From a virus, in UHGV virus genome UHGV-2201310: a stretch of 38,499 bases of DNA; one strand, 5' to 3'. The notes under the pieces were generated by a model. That model was given only the letters and a program-made list of their open reading frames with translations, did no database searches and had not been told where the DNA came from. Position 1 is the first letter of the stretch, and every line of letters begins with the position of its first letter. The translations under genes were made by a program, and so were the position numbers. Below, piece after piece: positions 9,940-37,710 of this stretch.

Positions 9940-9967
9940 GAAAAAGAAACCCGACGCTAAGGTCGGG
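9940..9967 (-). terminator. terminator downstream of cI
   Basis: Minus-strand hairpin CCCGACC-TTAGCG-TCGGG followed by TTTCTTTTT; corresponding lambda region is similar. Confidence 0.5.
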
Positions 9968-9999
9968 TTATTGTTGTGTGTTTTAGAGTGGTGAGGCTG

Positions 10000-17248: not shown

Positions 17249-17891
17249 TGGCAGCAAATACCGAAATATTTGGGTAGTTGGCGATCTGCACGGATGCTAC
17301 ACGAACCTGATGAAAAAACTGGAGACGATAGGATTCGACACCAAAAAAGACCTGCTTATCTCGGTTGGCGATTTGGTCGATCGCGGTACAGAGAACGTCG
17401 AATGCCTGGAATTAATCACATTCCCCTGGTTCAGAGTTGTACGTGGAAACCATGAGCAAATGATGATTGATGGCTTATCAGAGCGTGGAAACGTCAATCA
17501 CTGGCTGCTTAATGGCGGTGGCTGGTTCTTTAATCTCGATTACGACAAAGAAATTCTGGCTAAAGCTCTTGCCCATAAAGCAGATGAACTTCCGTTAATC
17601 ATCGAACTGGTGAGCAAAGATAAAAAATATATCATCTGCCACGCCGATTATCCTTGTGACGAATACGAGTTTGGAAGGCCAGTTGATCATCAGCAGGTAA
17701 TCTGGAACCGCGAACGAATCAGCAACTCACAAGACGGGATCGTGAAAGAAATCAAAGGCGCGGACATGTTCATCTTTGGTCATACGCCCGCAGTGAAACC
17801 ACTCAAATTTGCCAACCAGATGTATATCGATACTGGGGCAGTGTTCTGCGGAAATCTCACATTGATTCAGGTACAGGGAGAAGGCGCATGA
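17226..17891 (+). CDS. ninI: Ser/Thr protein phosphatase (NinI, lambda PPase-like)
   Basis: GDLHG, GDLVDRG, GNHE metallophosphatase motifs. Confidence 0.85.
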
Positions 17892-18511
17892 GACTCGAAA
17901 GCGTAGCTAAATTTCATTCGCCAAAAAGCCCGATGATGAGCGACTCACCACGGGCTACGGCTTCTGACTCTCTTTCCGGTACTGATGTGATGGCTGCTAT
18001 GGGGATGGCGCAATCACAAGCCGGATTCGGTATGGCTGCATTCTGTGGTAAGCACGAACTCAGCCAGAATGACAAACAAAAGGCTATCAACTATCTGATG
18101 CAATTTGCACACAAGGTATCGGGGAAATACCGTGGTGTGGCAAAGCTCGAAGGAAATACTAAGGCAAAGGTACTGCAAGTGCTCGCAACATTCGCTTATG
18201 CGGATTATTGCCGTAGTGCCGCGACGCCGGGCGCAAGATGCAGAGATTGCCACGGTACAGGCCGTGCGGTTGATATAGCCAAAACAGAGCAGTGGGGGAG
18301 AGTTGTCGAGAAAGAGTGCGGAAGATGCAAAGGCGTCGGCTATTCAAGGATGCCAGCAAGCGCCGCATATCGCGCTGTAACGATGCTAATCCCAAACCTT
18401 ACTCAACCCACCTGGTCACGCACTGTTAAGCCGCTGTATGACGCTCTGGTGGTGCAATGCCACAAGGAAGAGTCAATCGCAGACAACATTTTGAATGCGG
18501 TCACACGTTAG
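17888..18511 (+). CDS. Q: late antiterminator Q (lambda-type)
   Basis: 207 aa, essentially identical to lambda Q along its length from memory. Confidence 0.9.
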
Positions 18512-18554
18512 CAGCATGATTGCCACGGATGGCAACATATTAACGGCATGATAT

Positions 18555-18582
18555 TGACTTTTTGAATAAAGTTGGGTAAATT
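18555..18582 (+). promoter_or_regulatory. late promoter pR' (with qut)
   Basis: TTGACT-16 bp-TAAATT, same as lambda pR' sequence context. Confidence 0.6.
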
Positions 18583-18618
18583 TGACATCAACGATGGATA
18601 AATGCACTCGTTAAATAA

Positions 18619-18647
18619 AGCCCTGAGTTAATATCTCGGGGCTTTTT
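18619..18647 (+). terminator. tR'-like rho-independent terminator
   Basis: Hairpin AGCCCTGAG-loop-CTCGGGGCT followed by TTTTT, about 50-60 nt after pR'. Confidence 0.55.
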
Positions 18648-18945
18648 GCGTTTTAAGCACGGCCTTTCTGAAAGCACATCAAACCAAATACCAGACAGAC
18701 AAAAATAATCACCTTATCCGCTGTGGCTACGGTGCGGTGTGCTTTGCATAAAAGAAAACCAGCGCAATGGCTGGCTTCGTGAAAGCGGGTGGCATGAGGT
18801 TGCCCTAACAACCTCCTGCCGTTTTGCCCGTGCATATCGGTCACGAACAAATCTGATTACTAAACACAGTAGCCTGGATTTGTTCTATCAGTAATCGACC
18901 TTATTCCTAATTAAATAGAGCAAATCCCCTTATTGGGGGTAAGAC

Positions 18946-19269
18946 ATGAAGATGCCAGAAAAACATGACCTGTTAGCCGCCATTCTCGCGGCAAAGGAAC
19001 AAGGCATCGGGGCAATCCTTGCGTTTGCAATGGCGTACCTTCGCGGCAGATATAATGGCGGTGCGTTTACAAAAACAGTAATCGACGCAACGATGTGCGC
19101 CATTATCGCCTGGTTCATTCGTGACCTTCTCGACTTCGCCGGACTAAGTAGCAATCTCGCTTATATAACGAGCGTGTTCATCGGCTACATCGGTACTGAC
19201 TCGATTGGTTCGCTTATCAAACGCTTCGCTGCTAAAAAAGCCGGAGTAGAAGATGGTGGAAATCAATAA
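18946..19269 (+). CDS. S: holin S (dual-start MKM)
   Basis: 107 aa identical in pattern to lambda S incl. Met1-Lys2-Met3 dual start. Confidence 0.9.
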
Positions 19270-19729: not shown

Positions 19730-20163
19730 GCAGAGTAACCGCGATTATCTCCGCTCTGGTTATCTGCATCATCGTTTGCCTGTCATGGGCTGTTAATCAT
19801 TACCGTGATAACGCCATTACCTACAAAACCCAGCGCGATAAAGCCACGTACATCATCGCTGACATGCAGAAGCGTCAACGTGATGTAGCAGAACTCGACG
19901 CCAGATACACAAAGGAGCTTGCTGATGCTAACGCGACTATCGAAAGTCTCCGTGCTGATGTTTCTGCTGGTCGTAAGCGCCTGCAAGTCGCCGCCACCTG
20001 TGCAAAGTCAACGACCGGAGCCAGCAGCATGGGCGATGGAGAAAGCCCAGGACTTACAGCAGATGCTGAACTCAATTATTACCGTCTCCGAAGTGGGATC
20101 GACAGGATAACCGCGCAGGTTAACTACCTGCAGGAGTACATCAGGACGCAATGCCTTCGATGA
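19726..20163 (+). CDS. Rz: i-spanin Rz
   Basis: 145 aa; N-terminal TM + coiled coil, lambda Rz-like N-terminus. Confidence 0.85.
19919..20110 (+). CDS. Rz1: o-spanin Rz1 (embedded lipoprotein)
   Basis: +1 frame ORF inside Rz with lipobox LVVSAC and Pro-rich mature region. Confidence 0.7.
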
Positions 20164-20338
20164 TAGCGATAATTTTACTCATCATCCTTCACATCTGGCT
20201 CTGTAGACAGGGTGGTGATCACTTCTGGAGTGAATCCAGATTAAACATCTCATTGCTGATGCTTGATATTGAGCATCTGGCGCGCAGTAAGGGGCTGCGT
20301 TGAGATAAGAGCCAGTCATCACAAACACCAGGATTTAG

Positions 20339-20361
20339 CCTCGCATTCGCGGGGTTTTTTA
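20339..20361 (+). terminator. rho-independent terminator after lysis cassette
   Basis: Hairpin CCTCGC-ATTC-GCGGGG followed by TTTTTT. Confidence 0.45.
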
Positions 20362-20384
20362 TTCCCAACTCCATAGGTAATTTT

Positions 20385-20864
20385 ATGACCCAGCATATTG
20401 GCGTAAAACTGATTAACGCCTTTCCGATGACGAGACAGGCATATAACGATTTTCGTGGCTGGCAGCTTCCTGCCGGAGAAAACGGCGAGGACGAAGGCTA
20501 TCTGGTTGAATATCTGGATGGCGGAAAACCTAACACCGATCGCTTTGATGGCTACGTTAGCTGGAGTCCAAAAGAAGTATTCGAAAAGGCTTATCGTCCG
20601 GTATCAGGACTAAGTTTCGGCCTTGCCATGGAAGCGTTAAAACAGGGCAAAAGTTTGCAGCGGGCAGGATGGAATGGGAAAGACCAGTTTGTTTATCTCG
20701 TGAAAGGGGAAAAATTAGCGTCTGCGTTGGGTTATGGCTTTGGCGAATATGTTGGCGAGCCAACTTTCAATGACACGCTTGTATTGAAAAACTCACAGAA
20801 CCGCCTTGCTACATGGGTTCCATCCATTGGCGACCTGATGGCTGAAGACTGGCAAATCATTTAA
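20385..20864 (+). CDS. hypothetical moron protein (C-terminal half possibly DUF2829-like)
   Basis: 159 aa cytoplasmic protein; C-terminal SFGLAMEALKQGKSLQRAGWNGK...W.P...DL.AEDW pattern recalls DUF2829-type small domains (unverified). Confidence 0.55.
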   Translation: MTQHIGVKLINAFPMTRQAYNDFRGWQLPAGENGEDEGYLVEYLDGGKPNTDRFDGYVSWSPKEVFEKAYRPVSGLSFGLAMEALKQGKSLQRAGWNGKDQFVYLVKGEKLASALGYGFGEYVGEPTFNDTLVLKNSQNRLATWVPSIGDLMAEDWQII

Positions 20865-21167
20865 CCATGTAGGCATTACAAAGCCTATCTACGGGTGGGC
20901 TTGATAATGAAACCGGAGTTAATTTCTGGTCACTAATTAACGGCAGTACAGCGAAACAACCCAAGCCAGTAAGTGGGGAAATAACACTGGCAGCCACTGA
21001 AAGATGAACCTCCTGCCTTATGGCAAAAAAGATTCTTTGTGGTGGCGGACTGATGGAAAGACATCGGTTATTGCAGAGACCATTCAATGAGTGGTCTCGA
21101 CAATGGCTTATACCCTACACGGGATAACTTAACTGATATCCCTTTTAACGGATAAACGGAGCCAACA

Positions 21168-21410
21168 ATGGCAGAGATTATTCCCATGACTGAAGAACAG
21201 AAATTCCAGTTAGAGATTTACAAACTGGTCATGAACCAGAACGCAGCCGCAGAAGAAGCATTTCAATTCATCGGCACTGACGAACTGAAGCTTGAGCTAT
21301 TCAAAATTCACTTCCAGTCAGGCGGCGCTAATTCAGATATCACGACCCGCACTATCGAAGCGGTGCGTAAATCGAAGGAAGCGTTAGACCTGTTCACTAC
21401 CGGAGCATAA
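21168..21410 (+). CDS. hypothetical protein upstream of terminase
   Basis: 80 aa ORF with ACGGAG RBS. Confidence 0.5.
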   Translation: MAEIIPMTEEQKFQLEIYKLVMNQNAAAEEAFQFIGTDELKLELFKIHFQSGGANSDITTRTIEAVRKSKEALDLFTTGA

Positions 21411-21412
21411 AC

Positions 21413-21850
21413 ATGGCGCGCCCAACAAAGTATCAAGAGGCGTACGCCGAACAGGCACGCAAACTGTGCTTGCTGGGCTACACCGATGCAGAGCTTGCTG
21501 ATTTCTTCGAAGTCAGTGAGTCAACTATTAACAAGTGGAAGCTTGATTATCCTGAGTTTTCGGAGTCCATAAAAAAGGGTAAGGCCGTCGCTGATGCAGA
21601 AGTTAGTGATCGTCTTTATCAACGCGCTATGGGCTTCGTGGCTCCAGACATCGATATTCGTGTTATTGAAAACAGAATTGTCGAAACTCCGCTTGAGAAG
21701 TATTACCCGCCTGATACAACCGCCGCCATCTTCTGGCTTAAGAACCGACAGAAGGATAAATGGCGCGACAAGCAAGAAGTTGAACACACCGGAGAGGTTA
21801 ACCTGATTCAGCGCATTCAGGAGGCCAGAAAACGCGCGAGAGGTGAGTAA
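21413..21850 (+). CDS. terminase small subunit
   Basis: 145 aa with N-terminal HTH-like segment, immediately upstream of and coupled to large terminase. Confidence 0.65.
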   Translation: MARPTKYQEAYAEQARKLCLLGYTDAELADFFEVSESTINKWKLDYPEFSESIKKGKAVADAEVSDRLYQRAMGFVAPDIDIRVIENRIVETPLEKYYPPDTTAAIFWLKNRQKDKWRDKQEVEHTGEVNLIQRIQEARKRARGE

Positions 21851-23310
21851 TGTCGTCAGAATTCGAGGCAATGCTTGCCGATGATATGGGGCGATTCTTT
21901 TACGATCCGCTTGGCTTCGTTATGTATGCGTTTGATTGGGGAACTGGTGAGCTTGAGGGCTTTGACGGGCCCGATGAATGGCAGAAAGAGTTTCTGACAG
22001 ATTGGGGAGACGCAATCAGGACTAATAACTTCGACGGTGTTAAACCTGTTGAAGCCTATCGTTGCGCTACCAGCTCTGGTCACGGTATCGGTAAAAGTGC
22101 TCTAACTGCCTGGGTCATTCTGTACATCCTCAGCACTCGTCCTTTCTGCAAGGGCGTCGTGACAGCCAATACCTCTGAACAGCTTCGCACCAAAACATGG
22201 GGCGAGCTGGGCAAGTGGAAGAAGCGGTGCATCACTGGTCACTGGTTTGAGTACAACAACGGCAAAGGCAACATGAACATCTACCATGTGGATCACATGG
22301 AATCATGGCGCTGTGACGGCCAGACGTGTCGGGAAGAGAACAGCGAGTCATTTGCTGGCCTGCATGCAGCTAACTCAAGCCCGTTCTACATCTTCGATGA
22401 AGCCTCAGCGGTTCCTGACAAAATTTGGGAAGTAGCAGAGGGCGGCCTTACTGACGGCGAGCCTTTCTGGTTTGCATTTGGGAACCCGACCCGTAACACC
22501 GGTCGATTCCGAGAGTGCTTCCGCAAGTTCAAACACCGATGGCGTCGACGTCAAATTGATAGCCGCCTGGCAAAGATGACCAACAAAGAGCTCATTGAAG
22601 AGTGGCGCAAGGATTACGGTGAAGACAGCGACTTCTTTAAAGTACGTGTTCGCGGTCTATTCCCATCGACATCAGAAGTCCAGTTCATACCTCAGGCATA
22701 TGTGGATGAGGCCATGTCTCGCACGCTTGAGCCCGGGTCTTACACATTCGCATCCAAAATAATCGGCGTTGACCCTGCTTACACAGGTAGTGATGAGGCA
22801 TCAATTTACCTTCGCCAGGGTCTTCATGCGCGCCTGCTTGGCACCTACCCGAAAACAGATGACGACGTTAAGTTCGCGCAAATCGTCGCAGGATTTGAGG
22901 ATGAGCATAAGGCAGATGCAGTGTTCATAGACTTCGGGTATGGCACCGGAATTCACTCAATAGGTAGGTCGTGGGGAAGGAAGTGGCAGCTGGTTAACTT
23001 TGGGGGTGAATCCAAAGACCCCGGCATGCTGAACAAGCGCGGTGAGATGTGGAACTCAATGAAGTCATGGCTCAAAGAAGGGGGAAGTATCGATGATCAG
23101 CAAACAGCTGACGAAATCGTTGCTCCTGAGTACAGGGTTAAGCTCGATGGGCGCATCGTCCTTGAGGCCAAAGAGGACATGAAGCGCCGTGGGGTTCCTT
23201 CACCAAACCGCGCTGATGCGTTAGCCCTGACGTTTGCATTCCCGGTAGTCAAAAACAAACCAACTAAGCCATTACCGGCTCCAATTCGTCCAATTTCCAG
23301 AGGTAGATAA
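21850..23310 (+). CDS. terminase large subunit
   Basis: 486 aa; Walker A-like SSGHGIGKS, nuclease-domain acidic residues; position before portal. Confidence 0.85.
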
Positions 23311-25478
23311 TGGCCGACCAAGACGACAAATTGCGAACCATTCTCCTTCGGTTTGACAGGGATTGGGCAGCAAGCGATGAGGCCAGAACCGAGGCGACAA
23401 ATGACCTGTATTTTAGCCGAGTGTCGCAATGGGATGACTGGCTATCAAACTACACCACCCTGCAATATCGCGGACAATTCGATGTTGTCCGCCCGGTGGT
23501 CAGGAAGCTGGTCGCAGAGATGCGCCGGAACCCTATCGACGTTCTCTTCCGACCAAAAGACGGTGCTAATCCTGATGCAGCCGATGTGTTGATGGGGATG
23601 TATCGTACTGATATGCGCCATAACACGGCAAAAATTGCCGTTAACGTTGGCGTTCGTGAGCAGATAGAGTCCGGCGTTGGTGCATGGCGTCTGGTCACGC
23701 AGTACGAAGACAACGATCCAACAAGCAACAATCAGGTAATTCGACGCCTGCCAATTCATGAAGCCTGCTCACACGTCATATGGGACGCCAACAGCAAGCA
23801 GATGGATAAGAGCGACGCTAAGCACTGCACGGTGATTAACGCCTTGTCGCGCAATGGCTGGAAAGAGTTCGCAGAGGATTACGGTATTGATCCGGACACC
23901 TTGCCATCTTTCCAGAATCCGAACGATACATGGCTGTTTCCGTGGGTATCGAATGATGTCGTCTACGTCGCTGAGTATTACGAGGTCGAAGAGAAGAAAG
24001 AGAAAGTCTTCATCTACCGCGACCCGCTGACAGGTGAGCCAGTTAGCTATTACCAGCAGGATATCAAAGACGTCATCGACGACCTGGCTAATCGTGGATT
24101 CATTAAGGTAGCAGAGCGTAAGGTGAAGCGTCGGCGTGTGTATAAGTCGATCATCACCTGCACGCAGATACTGAAAGACCGCGAGAAGATAGCCGGAGAG
24201 CATATTCCAATCGTTCCAGTGTATGGCGAATGGTCATTCGCTGGTGACAAGGAGTGCTACGAAGGAGTGGTAAGGCTGACGAAAGACGGTCAACGCCTTC
24301 GTAACATGATCATGTCATTCAACGCCGATATTGTTGCTCGTTCACCGAAGAAGAAACCGACCTTCTTCCCTGAGCAAATCGAAGGCTACGAATACATGTA
24401 CGGTGGAAATGATGACTATCCGTACTATCTGCAGAACAGGACCGATGAAAACGGTAACGACCTGCCGATTGGTCCAATCTCCTACATGGAAAACCCTGAA
24501 GTGCCGCAAGCCAACGCTTACATGCTTGAGGCTGCCACCAACGCAGTGAAAGAAGTGGCTAGTCTTGGTGTGGATGCGCAGGCAGCAAACTCTCAGGTCG
24601 CTTTCGATACCGTCAATCAACTGAACATGCGGGCAGACCTTGAGACATACGTGTTTCAGGATAACCTGGCTACCGCAATGCGACGTGATGGCGAGATTTA
24701 TGCCTCAATGGTCAACGATATTTATGACGTTCCTCGCCATGTAACGCTGACACTTGAAGATGGTAGCGAGAAAGACGTTCAACTCTACGCGCAAGTTGTC
24801 GATTACCAGTCCGGCAATGTGGTCACACTCAACGACATTCGCGGTCGCTATGAGTGCTATACAGACGTTGGACCATCCTTCCAGAGTATGAAGGAACAGA
24901 ACCGCGCAGAGATTCAGGAGTTGCTCACCAAGGTTCCGCAAGGTACTCCAGAGTTCCAGATGCTGATGCTGCAATACTTCACGCTGCTTGACGGTAAAGG
25001 CGTCGAGATGATGCGAGAGTACGCGAACAAGCAACTGGTGATGATGGGGCTGAAGAAACCAGAAACACCTGAAGAGATGGAGATGGTGCAGCAGGCACAA
25101 CAACAGCCGCAGCAGCCATCAGCAGAGCAAATTCAGGCGCAGGGTATCCTTCTGCAAGGTCAGGCTGAATTGCTCAAGGCAGAGAACCAACAGGCGCAGA
25201 TTCAGGTTGAAGCCGCCAAGGTTGAAGCCCAAAACCAACTCAACGTCGCGAAGATTGCAGAAATCTTCAACAATATGGACCTCGACAAGCAGGCAGAACT
25301 GCGTGAGTACCTCAAGCTCGTAGGTCAATTCCAGCAACAGCGCAGCAAAGATGCTCGTGCTAACGCTGAGCTGCTTCTTAAAGATGCAGACCAGACTCAT
25401 TCACAACGCATGGATTTCGCGAATCTTATGCGTCAAGTTCAAATCCCCTCCGGCGGAGTAGCCGAGACACCTCAATAA
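23310..25478 (+). CDS. portal protein (P22 gp1-like)
   Basis: 722 aa, high similarity to P22 portal along its length from memory, incl. Gln/Ala-rich C-terminal barrel region. Confidence 0.9.
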
Positions 25479-25491
25479 GAGAGAGTTAACC

Positions 25492-26403
25492 ATGGACCAA
25501 ACCACCGACATTCAGGCTTCTGAAGAATTAACCCTGCCCGGCAATCATGCAGCGGCATCTGCTGATGGCTTAGTTGTCGATAATGCCAACGACAGCGCAG
25601 GTCAGGAAGAAGGCTTTGAGATTGTCCTGAAAGACGATGAGAAACCAAAACAAGACCCGGCAACTAATGCTGAATTTGCCCGTCGCCGCATCGAACGCAA
25701 ACGCCAGCGTGAGCTTGAGCAGCAGATGGAAGCGGTTAAGCGTGGAGAGTTGCCGGAGCACCTGCGGGTGAACCCTGAGTTACCAAAACAACCAGACCCT
25801 AACGATTATCTTTCCGAAGATGCACTGGCTAAGTACGACTATGACCAGAGCCGCGCACTGGCTGCCTTCCAGCAGGCAAACAGTGAATGGCAGATCAAGG
25901 CTATGGACGCACGAAGCCAGGCTGTCGCCGAGCAGGGTCGCAAAACTCAGGAGTTCACCCAGCAATCAGCGCAATACGTCGAGGCAGCCCGTAAGCACTA
26001 CGACGCAGCGGAAAAGCTCAATATCCCTGACTATCAGGAGAAAGAGGATGCATTCATGCAACTGGTGCCGCCAGCAGTCGGTGCCGACATCATGCGCCTC
26101 TTCCCGGAGAAATCCGCTGCTCTCATGTATCACCTTGGTGCTAATCCTGAGAAAACACGCCAGTTGCTGGCGATGGACGGGCAATCCGCGCTGATTGAAC
26201 TCACTCGACTGTCAGAACGTTTAACTCTCAAGCCTCGAGCCAAACCTGTTTCAGAAGCCCCGCTACCTGATGAACCCATTCAGGGACACGCTGTTGCTGC
26301 AAATATATCTGCGATTGAAAAGCAGATGGAAGCGGCAGCAAACAAAGGGGATGTAGAGACATACCGCAAGCTCAAGGCGCAACTGAATAAAGGAATTCGA
26401 TAA
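25492..26403 (+). CDS. scaffolding protein (P22 gp8-like)
   Basis: 303 aa, acidic/helical, position between portal and coat. Confidence 0.8.
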
Positions 26404-27698
26404 TGGCATTAAATGAAGGTCAACTGGTCACGTATGCTCTGGATGAAATCATCGAAACCGTCCAGAACCTGACGCCAATGGCGTCCAAAGTGACAAAATA
26501 CACCCCTCCGGCAGAATCCATGCAGCGTTCAAGCAACACCGTGTGGATGCCTGTTGAGCAGGAAGCGCCAACCCAGACTGGCTGGGATTTAACTGGCAAT
26601 GCAACCGGGATTCTGGAACTCTCCGTGAAATGCAACATGGGCGATCCGGATAACGATTTCTTCGAGCTTCGTGCAGATGACCTGCGTGATGAGCGTTCTT
26701 ACCGTCGCCGCATCCAGGCATCTGCCAAAAAACTGGCGAATAACATTGAGTCAGCGATTGCCAAACAGGCAACTGAAATGGGCTCACTTGTTGTTCACGA
26801 TACCCGCGCAATTGGTCCATCTACTGGCCTGTCTGGCTGGGATTTTGTGTCTGATGCAGAGCGCCTGATGTTCTCCCGCGAACTCAACCGCGACATGGGC
26901 ATCAGTTACTTCCTGAACCCTGACGATTACCGCAAAGCAGGCCGCAACCTGGTAGATGGTGACATCTTTGGGCGCGTTCCTGAAGAAGCTTATCGCAACG
27001 GTACTATTCAGCGTCAGATTGCTGGCTTTGATGAAATTCTTCGCTCACCGAAACTTCCTGCAGTTACCAAGTCAACCGCTACTGGTGTAACTGTTTCTGG
27101 TGCGCAGAAGTTTAAGCCGCAGGCGTACACCCTTGATACCGATGGTAACAAAGAGAACGTCGACAACCGTGTTGCAACGGTGACCGTATCCTCCACCACC
27201 GGATTTAAGCGCGGCGACAAAATCAGTTTCACTGGTGTGAAATTCCTGTCTCAGATGGCGAAGAACGTGCTGACTGATGATGCTACTTTCTCAATCACCC
27301 GTGTGATCGATGGTACTCACATCGAAATCACGCCGAAACCGATTGCACTGGATGACTCGTCACTGACAAAAGAAGAGAAGGCTTACGCTAACGTAAACAC
27401 CTCTCTTGCTGATACCACTCCGGTAAACGTTCTGAACGTGGCAACAACCACCGCTAACGTGTTCTGGGCTGATGACTCAATCCGCCTACTGTCTCAGCCG
27501 ATCCCGGTAACCCATGAACTGTTTGCTGGCATGAAAACGTCTTCCTTCAGCATTCCTGGTATTGGTGTTAACGGCATCTTCGCAACGCAGGGTGATATCA
27601 ACACTCTGTCTGGTAAGTGCCGTATTGCTGTGTGGTATTCAGCATGTGCTGTACGACCAGAGGCAATTGGTGTTGGTCTGCCTAACCAGACTGAGTGA
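26403..27698 (+). CDS. major capsid (coat) protein (P22 gp5-like)
   Basis: 431 aa, same length class as P22 coat, position and strong terminator downstream. Confidence 0.85.
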
Positions 27699-27704
27699 TA
27701 ACCA

Positions 27705-27730
27705 GAGGGAGCTTCGGCTCCCTTTTTTAT
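27705..27730 (+). terminator. rho-independent terminator after coat gene
   Basis: Hairpin GGGAGC-TTCG-GCTCCC followed by TTTTTT. Confidence 0.6.
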
Positions 27731-27742
27731 CTGGAGACAAGC

Positions 27743-27973
27743 ATGACACACATGATCTTTCGTCATGGAGACATGAAGAAATGGAAAGGCGTTGGATACG
27801 ACTTTGAAATCGTGAAAGCCGAAGAGATTCAGGAATATCTGGATGCTGGTTGGTTTGCACATCCCGATGACCTTCTGAAGGACGTTGCAGAGCCAGAGCC
27901 AGAAGAAAAACAGCGTAAAAAGCCTGGTCGAAAACCTAAGGCGGCAGCAGATGAACCTGACAACGAAGGGTGA
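27743..27973 (+). CDS. hypothetical small protein
   Basis: 76 aa with GGAG RBS right after terminator; Lys/Pro-rich tail. Confidence 0.45.
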
Positions 27974-28451
27974 TTTAGTTCTTGCGGCATTACGTAAGCT
28001 CGGTGTGGCATCAAATGCCACGTTAACCGATGTCGAACCGCAGTCTATGGAAGACGGCGTCAACGACCTTGAAATGATGATGGCTGAATGGCTTGGCGGT
28101 GATGTGTCACCTGGTATCAACGTTGGCTACATTTTCGCTGATGCAGATGTCGCTCCAGATCCGGGCGATGAGCACGGTTTATCAAATAACGCTATCAATG
28201 CTGTCATTTTCAACCTTGCCTGCCGCATTGCACCGGATTATGCGCTGGAAGCGTCAGCAAAACTTATAACCACTGCCAGATACGGGAAAGAGAGACTCGT
28301 CAAACTGTCTGCAATGTACAGAGCAAAAGCAGCTAAATGTAAGTCCGGTTATCCAAACCGTATGCCTGTTGGTAGCGGTAATCAGTTGGCGAAGTGGAAC
28401 GGTTGGAATTACTTCCACCGGAAGGAACCTTGCGATAACGGGAGCGAATAA
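27951..28451 (+). CDS. head completion/tail accessory protein (P22 gp4-like)
   Basis: 166 aa, gene order position of P22 gene 4. Confidence 0.65.
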
Positions 28452-29870
28452 ATGCCGGTTCAGCAACTTCCGCTTATGAAAGGTGTCGGCAAAGACTTTA
28501 GAAACGCCGACTATATCGACTATCTGCCAGTGAATATGTTGGCTACACCCAAAGAAATACTCAACAGCAGCGGATATCTTCGCTCATTCCCGGGCATTGC
28601 CAAACGTTCTGATGTGAATGGTGTATCTCGCGGTGTAGAGTACAACATGGCGCAGAGTGCTGTTTATCGCGTGTGTGGTGGGAAGCTCTACAAAGGCGAA
28701 AGCGAAGTCGGTGACGTCGCTGGAAGTGGTCGCGTATCAATGGCGCATGGTCGGACATCTCAGGCTGTAGGCGTTAATGGTCAACTGGTCGAGTATCGCT
28801 ATGATGGCACGGTTAAAACCGTCTCAAACTGGCCTACAGACAGCGGATTCACACAGTATGAGTTAGGCTCAGTCCGCGATATTACGCGCTTACGTGGGCG
28901 TTATGCGTGGTCAAAAGACGGAACTGATTCATGGTTTATCACTGACCTTGAAGACGAATCGCATCCTGACCGTTACAGCGCACAATATCGCGCAGAATCG
29001 CAGCCGGACGGTATCATCGGCATCGGAACATGGCGAGACTTCATCGTCTGCTTTGGTTCATCGACGATTGAATATTTCTCCCTGACTGGTGCAACCACTG
29101 TTGGTGCCGCTTTGTATGTCGCACAACCATCGCTGATGGTGCAGAAAGGCATCGCCGGAACTTACTGCAAAACGCCGTTTGCTGATTCGTATGCGTTCAT
29201 CAGCAATCCGGCAACAGGTGCGCCGTCTGTGTACATCATCGGCTCCGGTCAGGTGTCACCAATCGCCAGTGCGAGCATTGAGAAAATCCTCCGCTCCTAC
29301 ACTGCTGATGAACTGGCTGATGCCGTAATGGAGTCTCTGCGATTTGATGCGCATGAGCTGCTGATTATCCATCTTCCGCGCCATGTCCTCGTATACGACG
29401 CATCTTCAAGCGCCAATGCTCCGCAATGGTGTGTGTTGAAAACAGGCCTGTATGACGATGTGTACCGCGCTATCGACTTCATTTACGAAGGCAATCAGAT
29501 AACGTGCGGCGATAAGCTGGAATCGGTGACCGGGAAATTGCAGTTCGACATCAGCAGCCAGTACGACAAGCAACAGGAACACCTTCTGTTTACTCCGTTG
29601 TTCAAAGCAGATAACGCCAGATGCTTTGATCTGGAGGTGGAATCATCGACGGGTGTTGCGCAGTACGCTGACCGCCTGTTTCTGTCTGCAACCACTGATG
29701 GCATCAATTGGGGTCGTGAGCAGATGATTGAGCAGAATGAACCGTTCGTTTACGACAAACGCGTTTTGTGGAAAAAAGTAGGGCGCATCAGGAAAAACAT
29801 TGGCTTCAAATTGCGCGTTATCACTAAGTCACCTGTCACTCTTTCAGGCTGCCAGATAAGGATCGAGTAA
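28452..29870 (+). CDS. tail hub protein (P22 gp10-like)
   Basis: 472 aa, same size and position as P22 gp10. Confidence 0.8.
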
Positions 29871-30718
29871 TGGCTGATTCGAATCTCAATGAGCCGGTAA
29901 TCATCCAGGCTGCGCGGCTCGACACATCAGTTCTTCCACGCAATATCTTCTCGCAGTCGTATCTGCTTTACGTTATTGCACAGGGCACTGATGTTGGTAA
30001 CGTGGCTAACAAGGCCAACGAGGCCGGACAGGGCGCTTATGACGCACAAGTCAGGAACGATGAGCAGGATGTGATTCTGGTCGATCACGAAATTCGACTG
30101 GCATTGGCTGAAGCGAAGATACAGGACCACGAAACAAGGATCACTAACGCAGAAGCGGCGATAGTCGGCCTTGATTCGCGATTAACGACAGCAGAAAACG
30201 ATATTGATTATCTGACTGATGAAGTTGTCGCCATTCAAAACACGCTTTCAGACCATGAAACGCGCATTGATGCTCTGGAGTATGCCACTACTCGCAAAAA
30301 GTCAGAGGTTGTTTACTCTGGCGTATCTGTAACCATTCCGACAGCGCCGACCAACCTTGTTAGCCTGCTGAAAACGCTCACGCCGTCATCCGGCGCGTTG
30401 GCACCATTCTTCGACACCGTTAACAACAAGATGGTTGTGTTCAACGAGAACAAAACCTTGTTCTTCAAGCTTTCGATAGTAGGGTCGTGGCCCAGCGGAA
30501 CCGCCAACAGGTCAATGCAGCTAACCTTTTCCGGCTCTGTTCCTGACACGTTGGTCAGCAGTCGTAATGCGGCGACAACAACCGACAACATCCTGTTAGC
30601 TACGTTCTTCAGCGTGGATAAAGACGGCTTTCTTGCCACAAATGGCAGTACGTTAACCATTCAGTCAAATGGGGCGGCGTTTACTGCCACAACCATCAAG
30701 ATAATCGCGGAGCAGTAA
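29870..30718 (+). CDS. tail needle (gp26-like) with C-terminal knob domain
   Basis: 282 aa; N-terminal heptad coiled-coil, longer than P22 gp26, C-terminal beta-rich extension. Confidence 0.75.
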
Positions 30719-31173
30719 TGATTCAGTTCAAACCAACGCGAAACATCGACCTGATCGAAGCAGTAGGAAATCACCCTGACATCATCGCCGGGAGCAACAA
30801 CGGTGATGGATACGACTACAAACCTGATTGCCGTTACTTTGAGGTGAACGTGCACGGGCAGTTCGGCGGCATTGTTTACTATCAGGAGATTCAGCCGCTG
30901 ACATTCGATTGCCACGCCATGTACCTGCCAGAGGTTCGTGGCTTCAGCAAGGAAATCGGGCTGGCGTTCTGGCGATACATTCTGACTAACACCACCGTTC
31001 AGTGCGTCACATCGTTCGCCGCGCGCAAATTCCGCCACGGGCAGATTTACTGCGCAATGATTGGCCTTAAGCGTGTAGGAACCATCAAGAAATACTTCAA
31101 AGGCGTGGATGACGTGACGTTTTACAGCGCCACACGCGAAGAACTAATCGACTTCCTGAATCACGGGAGATAG
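30718..31173 (+). CDS. head/tail accessory protein (P22 gp14-like)
   Basis: 151 aa in conserved position. Confidence 0.6.
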   Translation: MIQFKPTRNIDLIEAVGNHPDIIAGSNNGDGYDYKPDCRYFEVNVHGQFGGIVYYQEIQPLTFDCHAMYLPEVRGFSKEIGLAFWRYILTNTTVQCVTSFAARKFRHGQIYCAMIGLKRVGTIKKYFKGVDDVTFYSATREELIDFLNHGR

Positions 31174-31175
31174 CC

Positions 31176-31871
31176 ATGTTATATGCATTTAAGCTGGGCA
31201 GAAAACTGCGCGGCGAGGAACCTTATTGCCCTGAAAAAGGCGGTAAAGGTGGCAGTTCTGATAAAAGTGCAAAGTATGCCGCAGAAGCTCAGAAGTATGC
31301 CGCAGACCTGCAAAATCAACAGTGGCAGACGATCATGAAAAACCTTGCTCCGTTCACGCCGCTTGCGGAGCAGTATGTTAACCAGCTTCAGAATCTTTCC
31401 AGTTTAGAAGGTCAGGAGCAGGCACTTAATCAGTATTACAACTCTCAGCAGTATAAAGACTTGGCAGGTCAGGCTCGCTACCAGAATCTTGCTGCTGCGG
31501 AGGCGACGGGGGGACTTGGTTCGACAGCCACAAGCAATCAACTGGCTACGATTGCTCCGACTCTCGGTCAGTCGTGGTTATCAAACCAGATGAGCAACTA
31601 CAACAATCTGGCAAACATTGGCCTTGGTGCGCTGCAAGGTCAGGCGAACGCCGGGCAGACATACGCCAACAACATGAGCAGCATTGCACAGCAAAGCGCA
31701 GCTCTTGCCGCTGCTAACGCCAATAAACCATCAGGCCTTCAGACAGCAATTAGCGGCGGAGCTTCAGGAGCTATGACTGGCGCTGCTCTTGGCTCTATTG
31801 TTCCCGGACTTGGCACTGGATTAGGTGCGGCAATTGGCGGCGGACTTGGCCTGCTTGGCTCGTTGTTTTAA
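31176..31871 (+). CDS. ejection protein (P22 gp7-like)
   Basis: 231 aa, Gln/Ala/Gly-rich, conserved position. Confidence 0.7.
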   Translation: MLYAFKLGRKLRGEEPYCPEKGGKGGSSDKSAKYAAEAQKYAADLQNQQWQTIMKNLAPFTPLAEQYVNQLQNLSSLEGQEQALNQYYNSQQYKDLAGQARYQNLAAAEATGGLGSTATSNQLATIAPTLGQSWLSNQMSNYNNLANIGLGALQGQANAGQTYANNMSSIAQQSAALAAANANKPSGLQTAISGGASGAMTGAALGSIVPGLGTGLGAAIGGGLGLLGSLF

Positions 31872-31880
31872 GGGGGAATC

Positions 31881-33257
31881 ATGGCTACTTGGCAAGGATC
31901 AAATGGCGGATTGTTGGCCGGTATCGGTGGTGTGAACTCAAACGCTCCGAGCGTAAATGACATCGGCAATACGCTTCAGCTTATCAGGCAGAACAATGAT
32001 ATTGAGCGTTCAGGAGCCAATAATATTGGGTTGACTGCTTTGCAAGGTATTTCAGGTATTGCGGGTGTTTTTCAGCAGGAAAAGCAGGCTCAGCGGCAGA
32101 AAGAATTTCAGCAGGCATACGCTAATGCTTATGCGTCTGGTGATCGCGGTGCTTTGCGTCAGTTGGCTACTCAATATCCAGACCAGATTGAATCTGTTCG
32201 TAAAGGCATGGGATTCATTGATGAAGACCAGCGCAATTCTATCGGCACATTAGCGGCTGGCGCACGCCTTGCATCATCGTCTCCAGAAGCAATGCAATCA
32301 TGGCTGCAAAACAACGCCAAGGAACTGGCGCGCGTCGGTGTTGATCCTAACAACGTTGCTCAGATGTATCAGCAGAATCCTTCAGGATTTGGTGAGTTTG
32401 TTGATCACCTTGGGATGGCTGCTCTTGGTCCGATTGATTACTTCAATGTTCAGGACAAGATGGCTGGTCGTGAGATTGACCGAGGCAGGCTGGCAGAGAC
32501 AATCCGCAGCAATCAGGCTGGCGAGGCACTTCAGGCGAGAGGGCAAAACCTTTCCTATCAGTCAGCAATGACTGGACACGGACTTGCAGCAGAAAGACTG
32601 GCACTTGATAAGCAGAAATTCGGTTTTGAAGTACAACAGGCACAAAAGAAGGCCGATGAACTTATTAATGCTGCGCCAAAACTATCCGTGAACATGGAAA
32701 AGGCTATAGAAAAATCAGCAGGTGATGCGGCAGCTAGTCGTAATGCTGCCGATTCAATGACAACGCTTGCTGACACGCTGGAGAAGGAGAAGCCAACTCC
32801 TGGTTTGTTCGGTAACGCTGAAAATATGTTCACTAAGCTTACGGGGCAAGATAACTACCTCCGAGATATGCGGATTAGATTCAACCAACTAGCCAATGCG
32901 CAGGCAACCAAGCTTCTCCCTCCCGGCCCTGCATCAGATAAGGATATTGAGTTTGCAAGGAAAGGCATTCCAAGCGAAACGGATAATCCAATGGTCATGG
33001 CTCGATGGTTAAGGGGTATGGCAAAAATGGAAAGTAATAACGCGAAGTTCAACGAGTTTAGGTCAGAGTGGATGAGTGCAAACGGCAGCCCAGGACAATC
33101 TGATCGCAACCGAAACATCATGGGGATGGATGTTAAGAAGGGTGAATCATTGAACTCTGCGGCAAAACGTTTTCTTTCCTCAAGTTATGGCGATAGCCAA
33201 CCTCAACAGCAATTGTCCGATGACGAATTAATTAGCAAATATCTCGGAGGGCAGTAA
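31881..33257 (+). CDS. ejection protein (P22 gp20-like)
   Basis: 458 aa, conserved position and size. Confidence 0.7.
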
Positions 33258-35371
33258 TGGCCTATAGTCGTGAACAGTTGATGACGGCGTTAAGGAATGC
33301 TGATGCTGCCGGCGATACTGAGGGAGCACGTCGCATTGCTCAGATGCTGTCTTCTGGTGATCAATCCACTCAAAACCAATCGCAGCCAGAAGAACAATCT
33401 CTGGTAGGAAAAGCCACTGACTGGCTCACTGGTGGTCAAAGCGCAGGGCAAATTGCAGAACAGGCTGGCCGTGGTCTGGTAAACATACCATTTGACGTGT
33501 TACAGGGTGGTGCAAGCCTGATTAATGCAATCAGTCAGGGGCTTGGTGGTCCCAAGGTTTTGGATGATGTCTATCGTCCAGTCGATCGACCGACAGACCC
33601 TTACGCGCAAGTCGGTGAAACAATTGGTGGGTATCTCCTGCCAATTGGCACAGCGGCAAAAGCTGCTGGAGCGCCAGCAAAGCTCGCTGGAGATATCGGT
33701 TCCGCAGGAAACATGATTGCAGGTTCTCTTGCTGATGCTGCAAATCAGGAGGGAGACTTTGCACAAAATGCTGCCATTAACGGTGGTATCAATATTGGTG
33801 CTCAAGGCGTTCTTTCAGGTGTCGGGCGCGTTATTGCGCCAAGGGTTTCACAGGCTCTTGGTGGTGCAGCACTGAATTCTGCTAATGATGTTTCCAGGAT
33901 GGCAAAGTCAGGTGCTGGGCGTCAGTCAATTGCCAGTCAGGCCGCTAATGTGTCCGAAGATGTAGCAAAAGCGGCTGAGTCTGCTGGAATTGATATAAAC
34001 GCATTAACACCAGGAATGCGATCTGGAAGTCGTGGAATTGCACAAGCCGAAGGCGCATTGGCATCAACACCAGGAATTGTTCAGGACGCCCATCAGGCAG
34101 CATTTGACGAAATATCATCAAAGTTAAGTCGAAACCTTGATGAATTTGGGGCCGCATCTGGAACGGCATCAGAAAAAAGTGCGGCTATAAAACAAAGGAT
34201 TCTTCAAAATCTTGATCAGATGAAGGATGCCGAGCGCGCGGCATGGGATGACGTGCGGTCAACGATGCCAAATCAAAAAGCAAGAATGCTAAATGGTAAT
34301 GCCGTTATTCAGGCAGAGCGATCTGCTGGCATACCGCTTACTCCTGAAATGAAACAGTTTGTTCAGGCAAACAATCAAGGTGGAGTAACATTTGATGGCA
34401 TGAAAGCATGGAGAGCGAAATTTGCTGATGCGGAGCAAAAATATAAGCGTAGCGGAGAGGCAAATGCGGCAAGGAGAGCAGGGGAAATACGCCGGGCAAT
34501 TACTGATGATATGCGCACAATGGCGGAAAACGGCGGATTTCTTGATGACTGGCAGAAAGCTAATGATCTGTCTAAAGCGAGGTTATCAGCACAAGAGAGT
34601 GCAGAGTCTGTTTTCGGGCGTGATTTGGCAACAGATACACTGATTACGAATGGAGTAAAATCCCTTCAATCATCGTCAGCTAAAGGTCTTAATGGTCCTG
34701 CTGGGTTCCATTCTATGATCCGCGCGCTGCCAGAATCAGAGCGTGTTCCTGCTATATCATCAATGTTGCAAGATGCTATCTCGCATGGTGTACGTGGTGG
34801 CAAAGCTGATGCAGCAGGAATTAACCATATCGCAGAGATACTCACTCCACAAAATGTAAAAGCCATTAGCCGATATTCCTCAGAGCTTGGAAGAATTGCA
34901 GATGCATATGGCACTCTTGCAAGAGCAGCAGTGAAACCTCAGCAGTATATTGAAAGAACAGGGCGAACTGCCAATGTACTACGCGATCTGGATGCTGGTT
35001 TATCCAACGTTACATCAACAGTGTTAAATGCAATTGCCAATTCAACATCAGGTGCCATTGTTGGTGGAGCAGGAGGAGGGGGCGTTGCTGGCGCTGCCGC
35101 TGGCGCTTTAGTTGGCGCAGGGTTAAAAGGCGCTGTATCTAAAATTGCCACCACACGTAGTGGTCGGTATGCGATAGAGAAAGCCGTTCAGGAAGCCACT
35201 AAAGCAGTAAGAACCGGCGGAAGCAAAGAAGCATTAGCTGCGGCGGAACGCAGATTTATGGCAAATAAGGCCGCTGTAAAAGCGATACGTGATACAGTCG
35301 GAAACGAAGAGTTTCAGCGATTAGCGAGGGCTGGGATTGTGGCATCGCTAAGCGGAATGGCACAGGAGTAA
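33257..35371 (+). CDS. ejection protein (P22 gp16-like)
   Basis: 704 aa, Ala/Gly-rich with C-terminal glycine-rich hydrophobic segment; conserved position. Confidence 0.7.
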
Positions 35372-35466
35372 TTAGTCGTCCACGGATGGATTGAGCTTAT
35401 CTCGTGCTTCACATTTGGTTGTTTTGTCATTAGGATGTTTCCGGTTTTTTAAATATGGAAATTGAT

Positions 35467-35757
35467 ATGAAGAGGATCATTGCGGTTGCTTGTTTTAATG
35501 TCTTTCTTTTATCTGGTTGTGCAACATCTTCTAAAACATACGCCCCTGATGGTAGAGAAGCATACACTATTGATTGCTCAGGTCTGGGGGGATCATGGGG
35601 GATGTGCCTAACTAAGGCTGGCGATTTGTGTGGAAGCAAAGGATATGATGTACTGACATCAGCTGGAGATAAAGGATTTATAGCATCAGCAAACCCCGAA
35701 ATGGCGTTTGCAGGCAATACCATCTCAAGGAATTTACTCATCGCTTGTAAAAAGTGA
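35467..35757 (+). CDS. small Cys-rich lipoprotein (cargo)
   Basis: Signal peptide MKRIIAVACFNVFLLSGC with lipobox; mature ~80 aa with 4 further Cys; alternative start 35455. Confidence 0.6.
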   Translation: MKRIIAVACFNVFLLSGCATSSKTYAPDGREAYTIDCSGLGGSWGMCLTKAGDLCGSKGYDVLTSAGDKGFIASANPEMAFAGNTISRNLLIACKK

Positions 35758-35774
35758 ACTAGCGCCATGGATGG

Positions 35775-36152
35775 CTATCTTATTGATTTACCATAATTAT
35801 ACATCTCAACATGAGCGCTGGCATACGCTCTCGCTGAATGATCATCAATTAAAGCTTTCTTTGCAGCTTTATAGTTATATTCCCATAATAAATTTGTATC
35901 ATATGACTGATTTTCAATTCCTTTTTCACAAGTAAATATCAATCCGTTTATTGTTGATATTTCAACCGGGCTAATTTTCCCATCGGTGCCACTGCGCAAT
36001 CCAGAGAGGATAAGGTCTCTATCACCTGTAAGTAACTTGCGATAATAAACATCAGCTGCCTTTGCAGAGCATTCTGCACTAGATGCAAAAGATGCATTAG
36101 ATATTATCAAAAGCATACCAATAAGAATTAACTTTAGGGCGCTAACCTTCAT
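35775..36152 (-). CDS. secreted/periplasmic hypothetical protein (cargo)
   Basis: Cleavable signal peptide MKVSALKLILIGMLLIISNASFA; downstream of mnt on same strand; alternative start 36164. Confidence 0.55.
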   Translation of the reverse strand: MKVSALKLILIGMLLIISNASFASSAECSAKAADVYYRKLLTGDRDLILSGLRSGTDGKISPVEISTINGLIFTCEKGIENQSYDTNLLWEYNYKAAKKALIDDHSARAYASAHVEMYNYGKSIR

Positions 36153-36399
36153 TGTTCTTGCCATAAATTCTTTTCAGTGTATCGAATACCATTTTTTTTA
36201 CAATTTCAGACTGCTCATCAGCAATTTTCTCAGCTTCGTTGCGATAACCAACTACAGGAGATGGTTTTGATAGAGCATCTTGGACGATTTGCAACAGCTC
36301 GGAGTTCATGGATCTCCCATTCGCCTCTGCTCTGAATTTCAATTTTTCTCTCACTTCCAAAGGCATGCGGAAGTTAAAGTGCGGATCATCTCTAGCCAT
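36142..36399 (-). CDS. mnt: Mnt repressor (ribbon-helix-helix)
   Basis: MARDDPHFNFRMPLEVREKLKFRAEANGRSMNSELLQIV... matches P22 Mnt. Confidence 0.85.
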   Translation of the reverse strand: MARDDPHFNFRMPLEVREKLKFRAEANGRSMNSELLQIVQDALSKPSPVVGYRNEAEKIADEQSEIVKKMVFDTLKRIYGKNNEG

Positions 36400-36421
36400 G
36401 CCATTACTCCAAGTCAGTGTA

Positions 36422-36474
36422 TTGACATGATAGAAGCAGTCTACTATATTCTCAATAGGTCCACCGTGGACCTA
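36422..36474. promoter_or_regulatory. Pant promoter with Arc operator and Mnt operator
   Basis: TTGACA-17-TATATT; Arc operator ATGATAGAAGCAGTCTACTAT in spacer; perfect palindrome TAGGTCCACCGTGGACCTA (Mnt operator). Confidence 0.7.
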
Positions 36475-36489
36475 TATTGTGAGGTGAAT

Positions 36490-36651
36490 ATGAAAGGAAT
36501 GAGCAAGATGCCGCAGTTCAATTTGCGGTGGCCTAAAGAAGTATTGGATTTGGTACGCAAGGTGGCGGAAGAGAATGGTCGGTCTGTTAACTCTGAGATT
36601 TATCAGAGAGTAATGGAAAGCTTTAAGAAGGAAGGGCGCATTGGCGCGTAA
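36490..36651 (+). CDS. arc: Arc repressor
   Basis: MKGMSKMPQFNLRWPKEVLDLVRKVAEENGRSVNSEIYQRVMESFKKEGRIGA, P22 Arc. Confidence 0.9.
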   Translation: MKGMSKMPQFNLRWPKEVLDLVRKVAEENGRSVNSEIYQRVMESFKKEGRIGA

Positions 36652-36719
36652 AGTTGAAGCCCCAACTGCTGTAACAGTCAGGGCTTCGGTATCAACAAAA
36701 CTTACGAGGTATTATTGAT

Positions 36720-37610
36720 ATGTCAAGCTTAGCAAAGTCAACTGTAAATTGCACTAATAGCATCATCATTTCTGACGTCAAGATTCATATGGATTCAGAG
36801 GGGCGTTACTCGCTTAATGACCTTCATGTAGCGTCTGGGAAGGAGGAAAAACATCAGCCAGCTTTCTTCATGCGTAGAAATGAAACTATTGAATTGATTA
36901 ATGAAATTTTTAATTCTGCGGATATGCAGAATAAGAATCCCGTCCTTTCTAAGAAAGGTCGATATGGTGGAACCTACGTGTGCAAGGAGCTTGTTTACTC
37001 CTACGCCATGTGGATTAGCGCAGCCTTTGCGCTGAAGGTTATCCGTGCATATGACGCAATGGTTACTGCCACACAAGAGAGGAAGGCTATTGGAGGTAAA
37101 ACTTCAGTAGCTGAACGCACACCGCTACGAGATGCAGTAAACATGCTGGTAGGAAAGAAAGGACTTCGCTATGACGATGCATACAATATGGTTCATCAGC
37201 GTTTTGGTATTGACAGCATTGATGAACTTTCAATTGAACAAATTCCGCTGGCCGTAGAGTACATCCACAGGGTAGTGCTTGAAGGTGAATTCATCGGCAA
37301 ACAAGAGAAGAAAACCAGCGAGCTTTCTGCAAAAGAAGCAAACAGCCTTGTATGGTTATGGGATTATGCCAACCGCTCACAGGCATTATTCCGCGAACTG
37401 TATCCGGCATTAAAACAAATTCAATCGAACTATTCCGGCAGATGCTACGACTACGGTCATGAGTTCTCGTATGTTATCGGAATGGCGAGGGACGTTTTAA
37501 TCAATCACACACGAGATGTTGATATCAATGAGCCAGAAGGACCAACGAATCTTTCCGCATGGATGAGACTTAAGAATAAAGAATTACCTCCTTCAGTACA
37601 TAACTACTGA
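36720..37610 (+). CDS. ant: antirepressor Ant (KilA-N domain)
   Basis: 296 aa; N-terminal KilA-N-like region; downstream of arc as in P22 immI. Confidence 0.8.
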
Positions 37611-37627
37611 CAGATAACCAACGCAAC

Positions 37628-37651
37628 GACCCAGCTTCGGCTGGGTTTTTT
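37628..37651 (+). terminator. rho-independent terminator after ant
   Basis: Hairpin ACCCAGC-TTCG-GCTGGGT followed by TTTTTTT. Confidence 0.6.
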
Positions 37652-37710
37652 TATGCCCAAAATTCACCGTAGCCATGCTGCGGCGATTCCTTGTATCTGG
37701 AGCAAATTAA

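Follow-up and report, generated by a model that had tools for sequence, protein, structure and literature searches.

The window, the whole 38,499-nt stretch of DNA analysed here, is a P22-like (Lederbergvirus) prophage integrated at tRNA-Thr. Its upstream end carries a host gene and tRNA-Thr(CGT) (1369-1444), followed by an integrase on the minus strand, and over 27300-28100 the nearest deposited phages are the E. coli phages APC_JM3.2, IME10, and CurroJimenez_Bas106 (97-98% identity). The late genes are encoded on the + strand in the order Q, lysis genes, terminase, portal, scaffold, coat, a small ORF of 76 aa, gp4, gp10, and further genes (Table 1). The coat gene ends in TGA (27696-27698) with an in-frame back-up TAA (27699-27701), and the space between it and the 76-aa ORF is occupied by a hairpin, a T-tract, and a Shine-Dalgarno sequence. 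P22 orf69 matches the same PHROGs family (phrog_1175) as the 76-aa ORF, whose N-terminal sequence M-x-x-M-[ILV]-[FY], read from aligned loci, recurs in many relatives; the N-terminus is conserved and the tail is charged and rich in proline and lysine. The 3' end of this ORF overlaps the start of gp4 by 23 nt, and gp4 is the first essential gene that needs read-through past the post-coat hairpin. In APC_JM3.2 and IME10, the small post-hairpin ORF contains a 36-nt in-frame insertion (L001 2090-2140) that is annotated as repeat_region.

Table 1. Coordinates of the late-operon genes, the post-coat element, and the other predicted control sites in the window.
Feature	Position	Strand	Details and evidence
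Late antiterminator Q, lambda type	17888..18511	+	PF03589, E = 1e-57
Late promoter PR' (TTGACT-17-TAAATT)	18554..18582	+	scan; sequence; blastn vs lambda
tR'-like terminator, ~35 nt downstream of PR'	18617..18645	+	scan; fold -17.0 kcal/mol
Canonical intra-operon terminator, after lysis genes	20337..20356	+	scan; fold
Scaffold	25492-26403	+	late gene directly before coat
Coat (major capsid) protein gene, 431 aa	26403..27698	+	ORF list; PF11651 P22_CoatProtein, E = 5e-166
Predicted terminator hairpin	27704..27725	+	5' arm 27704-27712 AGAGGGAGC; loop UUCG 27713-27716; 3' arm 27717-27725 GCUCCCUUU
T-tract TTTTTTAT	27723..27730	+	sequence; first three T double as outer stem pairs
Shine-Dalgarno GGAG of the 76-aa ORF	27733..27736	+	6 nt before ATG 27743-27745
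Small ORF, 76 aa, phrog_1175 (family of P22 orf69)	27743..27973	+	PHROGs E = 2e-37
gp4 (head-tail adaptor, tail accessory factor)	27951..28451	+	PF11650, E = 1e-58; aligns with P22, Sf101, and Brookers gp4
Canonical terminator (UUCG loop, T7), after ant-like ORF of immI region	37628..37647	+	scans; fold

The hairpin pairs A27704-C27712 with G27717-T27725 through nine base pairs, including one G-U, and its 6-bp core (GGGAGC/GCUCCC) contains five G-C pairs out of six. The uninterrupted T6 run (27723-27728) is followed by AT. The earlier note had described a GC-rich hairpin with a T-tract behind the coat gene and in front of a ribosome binding site, and this arrangement is directly confirmed in the sequence. 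The stem starts 5-6 nt past the coat stop, so that the 6 bp given for this distance is correct when counted to G27705, while the gap of 3 bp between T-tract and GGAG is an approximation, as 4 nt separate GGAG from T6, or 2 nt if measured from the end of TTTTTTAT.

The isolated hairpin has a predicted folding energy of -14.4 kcal/mol, and its 61-nt context one of -18.2 kcal/mol (z = -2.1). A loose terminator scan of 20000-38499 ranked the post-coat site first of 20, a class of sites that is not enriched in this region (20 sites versus 17.8 expected). With a stricter definition (seven or more contiguous Watson-Crick pairs, five or more of them G-C, a loop of 3-6 nt, and five or more T in 6), three sites were found in the whole window versus a mean of 0.01 in 100 dinucleotide shuffles, namely, the post-coat hairpin, 37628-37647, and a bidirectional site at 9948-9969. 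The last of these, in the early region, is a perfect 8-bp hairpin with A-tract and T-tract flanks that scores as a terminator on both strands. The site at 37628-37647 follows an ant-like ORF (36720-37610, +) in the immI (mnt/arc/ant-like) region, where a sar RNA (Rfam RF00262, 67 bits) is encoded in antisense (36652-36718, -). The post-coat element combines a G+C-rich stem-loop with an immediate 3' U run, is co-oriented with the late operon, and lies outside coding sequence. From these features, it is predicted to be a terminator of the Rho-independent type.

Several other identities for the hairpin were considered and rejected. A chance origin is ruled out by the strict scan against shuffled sequences together with the conservation described below. 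No known RNA family is matched within 27600-27850 even at E <= 10, and at gathering thresholds, Rfam detected nothing in the whole window apart from the tRNA and the sar RNA. The hairpin could lie within a longer ORF, as there is an open frame from GTG 27695, but relatives differ in the length of the spacer between coat stop and stem in ways that do not keep the frame, and ATG 27743 is both preceded by a strong GGAG and the point where the conserved N-terminus starts. A minus-strand or bidirectional terminator is contradicted by the reverse strand, where the hairpin is followed only by UCUGGUUAUC, and by the absence of minus-strand genes converging at the site; one phage L record nonetheless annotates a minus-strand terminator. 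Occlusion of the Shine-Dalgarno sequence by the hairpin was discarded because GGAG is predicted to be mostly unpaired in the ensemble fold of the read-through RNA. A boxB-type hairpin has a 5-bp stem and a GNRA-like pentaloop next to boxA, and a boxB/nut-like site was rejected here: the UUCG loop has four nucleotides, there is no boxA next to the hairpin, and its location is in the late operon. Finally, a regulated attenuator was rejected, since no competing structure appeared in the folds, the flanks are not conserved, and there is no Rfam match at E <= 10.

The conservation of the element was analyzed in 43 P22-like prophage loci (227 kb), anchored on gp4 and taken from one-genome-per-species bacterial assemblies of about 18 enterobacterial genera (Escherichia, Shigella, Citrobacter, Kluyvera, Buttiauxella, Providencia, Rahnella, Pantoea, Xenorhabdus, Proteus, Tatumella, Symbiopectobacterium, Morganella, Rosenbergiella, Yersinia, Erwinia, Yokenella, and Atlantibacter). 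The motif GGG(A/G)GC-NNNN-GC(T)CCC, a regular expression composed after the data had been seen, is present in 40 of the 43 loci, exactly once per locus and always just 3' of the coat stop; as the relatives are phylogenetically related, this and the following counts are descriptive figures and not numbers of independent events. Two further loci (L114 and L115) carry a point variant with a mutated closing pair, which brings the hairpin to 42/43, and the remaining locus (L128) is the only one in which neither a coat-sized ORF nor the motif was found. P22, L, Emek, SPN9CC, Sf101, and the Proteus phage Brookers carry the element as well. The Sf6-type loci (Sf101, L123, and L124) share the 14-nt core, yet their coat genes have no detectable DNA similarity to that of the window.

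The 10 nt that follow the core contain at least 5 T in 44/45 sequences and start with TTT in 36/45, and the loop is UUCG in 35/48. GGAG, GAGG, or AGGA is found 3-11 nt before the start codon in nearly all relatives. The spacer between coat stop and stem measures 5-22 nt and is not conserved in sequence; its length is not a multiple of 3 across relatives, and therefore this stretch is non-coding. An interrupted T-tract is common (UUUC in 17/45 relatives), and the element is still retained. In E. coli CP178302.1 (L089) and Shigella flexneri CP182556.1 (L090), in both at ~2273, and also in L030, a G replaces the first T after the core (GCTCCCGTTTTT). This variant loses the outer stem pairs and the proximal U and, judged by its sequence, is a naturally weakened terminator allele. 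The retention of the element in spite of interrupted T-tracts or a G after the stem suggests that maximal termination strength is apparently not the variable under selection.

Three loci show local peculiarities. In Erwinia tracheiphila JBHMFM010000001.1 (L131), a premature coat stop at ~2021 lies about 170 nt before the hairpin, whose motif is still found at 2193, and this coat gene looks like a pseudogene. In Symbiopectobacterium purcellii NZ_CP189882.1 (L122; 354-2500), the motif is located ~2.1 kb upstream of gp4 instead of the usual 0.2-0.6 kb, which indicates a large insertion in the variable slot behind the terminator. In the Proteus phage vB_PmiP_Brookers (OL539469.1; L087, 1815-1875), gp6 has been annotated from a TTG 7 nt past the coat stop, so that the annotation reads through the conserved hairpin GGGAGCTTCGGCTCCC-T7 and hides it; the true start of gp6 is likely the ATG after GGAG, as in all relatives. 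In practice, the position of the hairpin reliably marks where the next ORF truly starts, a start that has been mis-called in one or more of the deposited genomes.

The pattern of substitutions in the hairpin was analyzed with 38 distinct sequences aligned on the loop. Pairing is kept at 100% in four core pairs and in 37/38 at the closing pair, while two stem pairs show compensatory changes (AU 18, GC 9, UA 4 at one of them; GC 29, AU 7, GU 2 at the other). The observed covariation score was reached by none of 500 shuffles, and sliding the 3' arm lowered every measure save the count of pair types. In addition, a set of 80 viral contigs with coat proteins 99-100% identical to that of the window has 0/12 variable sites in the core and 2/4 in the loop, compared with eight in the last 60 coat nucleotides. 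Descriptive as these figures are, they point in an unambiguous direction, and the stem and the T-tract are under strong purifying selection. The conservation of the T-tract in 44/45 sequences points to a terminator rather than to a bare hairpin, since a bare exonuclease barrier would not need it, and thus real termination is favoured over a bare stabiliser.

The transcriptional context of the element is of the lambda type. Q and the PR'/qut (Q-loading) segment share 97.4% DNA identity with lambda over 733 nt. Two segments, 17880-18612 (Q, PR'/qut) and 18775-18960 (upstream of the holin gene), are 97-98% identical to lambda, and the segment between them (~18613-18774), which includes the tR'-like terminator, differs from lambda and thus forms a sharp mosaic patch in this P22-like phage. 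This tR'-like terminator is the one that Q has to defeat before the late operon can be switched on. Further downstream, the terminator at 20337-20356 and the post-coat hairpin bracket the terminase-portal-scaffold-coat block. Just past the former, between the lysis and terminase genes, an ORF of 159 aa (20385-20864, +) with a Thoeris anti-defense 2-like domain (PF11195, Tad2-like, E = 6e-22, residues 77-159) occupies a moron-like slot of the late operon.

As established for lambda Q, the modified RNA polymerase is equipped to ignore intrinsic terminators and stays resistant throughout the operon. With a lambda-type Q/PR' driving the late operon, the main late transcript should therefore be attenuated only slightly. 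Moreover, Q must first beat a tR'-like terminator that is at least as strong as the post-coat one, and the same polymerase should then ignore the hairpin. An independent promoter for the downstream genes was also considered, but promoter-like sites are not enriched (16 versus 21 expected) and none was found between the hairpin and gp4. P22-like phages have been described, from BTP1 transcriptomics and from P22 genetics, as having a single promoter and one polycistronic late operon (PMC8022706; PMC7067206). As the essential virion genes downstream of the hairpin (gp4, gp10, and those after them) lack a convincing promoter in such a single-promoter operon, the terminator must leak heavily in productive infection. 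In the literature searched, which covered RNA-seq and small RNAs of P22, the transcriptome of BTP1, ribosome profiling of lambda, and ONT-cappable-seq, we have found no expression data for the post-coat site.

Taking these results together, we propose that the hairpin is a conserved terminator closing the procapsid block of P22-like late operons that combines a modest attenuation with the protection of RNA 3' ends and with the stopping of polymerases that lack Q, a combination to which we give somewhat better than an even chance. During lytic growth, Q-modified RNA polymerase coming from the lambda-type PR' would mostly read through the hairpin, allowing the expression of gp4, gp10, and later genes, and a minority of the late transcripts would end at it; we infer this low termination efficiency from the Q context and from the need for read-through. 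The ends so produced, and those generated by decay back to the hairpin, would be protected from 3' exonucleases, and in this way, the coat-encoding RNA might have a longer half-life than the distal RNA and outnumber it, with a corresponding effect on the protein ratio. A polymerase that had not been loaded with Q at PR', arising from spurious or internal starts, in the lysogen as well, would be fully stopped. Against this proposal, Q-modified polymerase may read through essentially completely, which would leave only the stabilising and safety roles, and part of the selection on the T-rich tract could come from a function as a translation enhancer upstream of the next ORF. In addition, late-gene ratios in lambda are attributed mainly to translation initiation.

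A stronger version of the attenuation had been put forward in the earlier note, where the terminator sets the high coat-to-downstream protein ratio, i.e., partial termination at an efficient terminator would be its principal determinant. The element has the canonical features of a strong terminator, with an uninterrupted U6 and a folding energy that agrees with this view, and it sits exactly between genes of high copy (scaffold, coat) and genes of low copy (gp4, gp10, and following). The placement recurs in lambda and HK97, in the latter also behind the major tail gene, and phiX174 provides a measured precedent. Partial termination is also named as a possibility in PMC8022706. However, a Q-modified polymerase that has already beaten the tR'-like terminator at 18617-18645 should ignore this hairpin as well, and the element has been retained in many relatives with interrupted tracts (UUUCUU) and in some with a G after the stem (L089, L090). 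Thus, the notion of an attenuating terminator holds insofar as it rests on terminator features co-oriented with the late operon, on selection, and on leakiness, whereas the claim that it sets the ratio finds no support in this form and is weakened by the lambda-type Q/PR', and we regard such a dominant role as possible but doubtful.

Another explanation is that the element acts purely as a safety terminator, stopping only the non-antiterminated transcription that would enter the head-completion and ejection genes, with no role in productive late expression. This function has been proposed (PMC8022706), and it agrees with the expectation that Q-modified polymerase should not terminate. In BTP1, a P22-like prophage, four coding-strand transcription start sites lie inside the capsid cluster (PMC7067206), and transcripts from internal starts of this type would lack Q. 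On the other hand, our scan of the window detected no good match to a sigma-70 promoter in the procapsid genes upstream of the hairpin, and a purely protective function leaves unexplained why unrelated lambdoid head modules have the element specifically behind their major capsid gene. We therefore consider it unlikely that safety is the only function, although the stopping of polymerases without Q is part of the combined role that we favour.

The near-invariant GGGGC-UUCG-GCCCC, found across P22-like phages whose coat genes cannot otherwise be aligned and with compensatory turnover limited to two pairs, also raises the idea that the hairpin might be a specific recognition element on the scaffold-coat mRNA, beyond a generic terminator. 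Free P22 scaffolding protein down-regulates its own message post-transcriptionally, and the hairpin could be the RNA target of this protein or a site for another phage or host RNA-binding factor; in the latter case, it would couple capsid assembly to mRNA fate. We give this idea very little credence.

The 3' edge of the hairpin is also a mosaic boundary. The 80 loci with near-identical coat genes (~100%) carry two alleles of the downstream ORF (65 and 15 loci), whose divergence begins immediately past GCTCCCTTTT, and P22 (orf69) and L (orf186) part at the same point. These downstream ORFs form one family (phrog_1175, with the N-terminus of phrog_3769), so that the junction joins diverged homologues and not unrelated genes, L orf186 sharing only its N-terminal 45-58 residues with the family of the 76-aa ORF. 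Such breakpoints, and an identical core across otherwise unalignable coat modules, might indicate that the palindrome persists as micro-homology for the exchange of the procapsid and variable-ORF modules and not for an RNA function, but this is most improbable, because the compensatory changes, the free loop beside a fixed stem, the conserved T-tract, and the strict co-orientation point to selection on RNA structure, and breakpoints at gene borders are expected anyway, as selection removes recombinants with broken genes. The pattern fits ordinary selection for intact genes after recombination, and the conserved palindrome may also supply micro-homology.

The post-coat element is not new, since it is homologous to the annotated stem-loops of P22-like phages, and the attenuation idea is one of two published hypotheses. 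The genome paper of phage L considers partial termination or the stop of spurious non-antiterminated transcription as possibilities and calls the role unknown (PMC8022706). It carries little weight as a discovery, being a textbook-looking terminator already marked by those who curated the P22, L, Emek, and HK97 records and discussed in one genome paper. What the present survey adds is the near-universal presence of the hairpin in P22-like phages, the compensatory changes, the breakpoints at its 3' edge, and the parallel after lambda E. The general question raised is why intrinsic terminators are kept right behind the major capsid gene in late operons that are antiterminated by Q, and the survey makes it cleanly testable through mutation of the stem versus the T-tract.

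The closest counterparts are those of P22 and its relatives. The RefSeq record of P22 (NC_002371.2) contains a stem_loop feature (6102-6119), 6 nt past gene 5, with a note that calls it putative and likens its location to that of the HK97 and lambda stem-loops, and phage L cII-101 and vB_SemP_Emek have a terminator feature annotated at the corresponding place. The core GGG(A)GC-NNNN-GC(U)CCC matches these annotated elements in position and sequence. P22, L, Emek, and the window have in common the location 5-6 nt after the coat stop, a G-rich 5' arm, a C-rich 3' arm, a tetraloop, a T-rich tract, a Shine-Dalgarno sequence, and an ATG that opens a small ORF (orf69/orf186 family) ahead of gp4. The stem of the window is longer than that of P22 (9 bp versus 6 bp), the GGGAGC/GCUCCC core having an extra A-U pair and being extended by three outer pairs, and its U6 is uninterrupted, whereas P22 has UUUCUUU. 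The coat genes of the two are only about 73% identical in DNA, and the downstream ORF is a different allele.

Other comparisons are more distant. Like the post-coat element, lambda tR' is an intrinsic terminator met by Q-modified polymerase, and the window has a tR'-like terminator of its own; tR', however, is a regulatory switch that is efficient without Q, whereas the post-coat element lies 9 kb into the operon with no regulatory alternative structure associated. In T7, the partial terminator T-phi is located right behind the major capsid gene 10, and capsid mRNA exceeds distal mRNA, but T-phi acts on T7 RNA polymerase and bears no relation to the window in sequence or machinery. The terminators T_J, T_F, T_G, and T_H of phiX174 are leaky intrinsic terminators inside a polycistronic structural-gene transcript, which most polymerases pass, with a measured block of 20-40% at T_J, T_F, and T_G; this phage is unrelated and has no antitermination factor, so that the leakiness is intrinsic to the terminators.

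In HK97, putative terminators are annotated after the major head gene (gene 5) and after the major tail gene. The lambda E-FI gap reads TAA-TC-ATGGCCC-TTCG-GGGCCAT-TGTTTCTCT-GTGGAGGAGTCC-ATG, and its layout is that of the window: 2 nt separate the stop from a 7-bp stem that closes a UUCG loop, and a T-rich tract then leads to GGAGGAG and the ATG. Both phages share with the window a single late operon antiterminated by Q, but their stem sequences and flanking genes are unrelated and their T-tracts are weaker, suggesting an analogy or a very remote homology. That the arrangement recurs behind the most abundant structural genes of unrelated head modules, and that leakiness has been measured for the capsid-region terminators of phiX174, speaks for a connection with capsid-gene dosage more than for a generic insulator.
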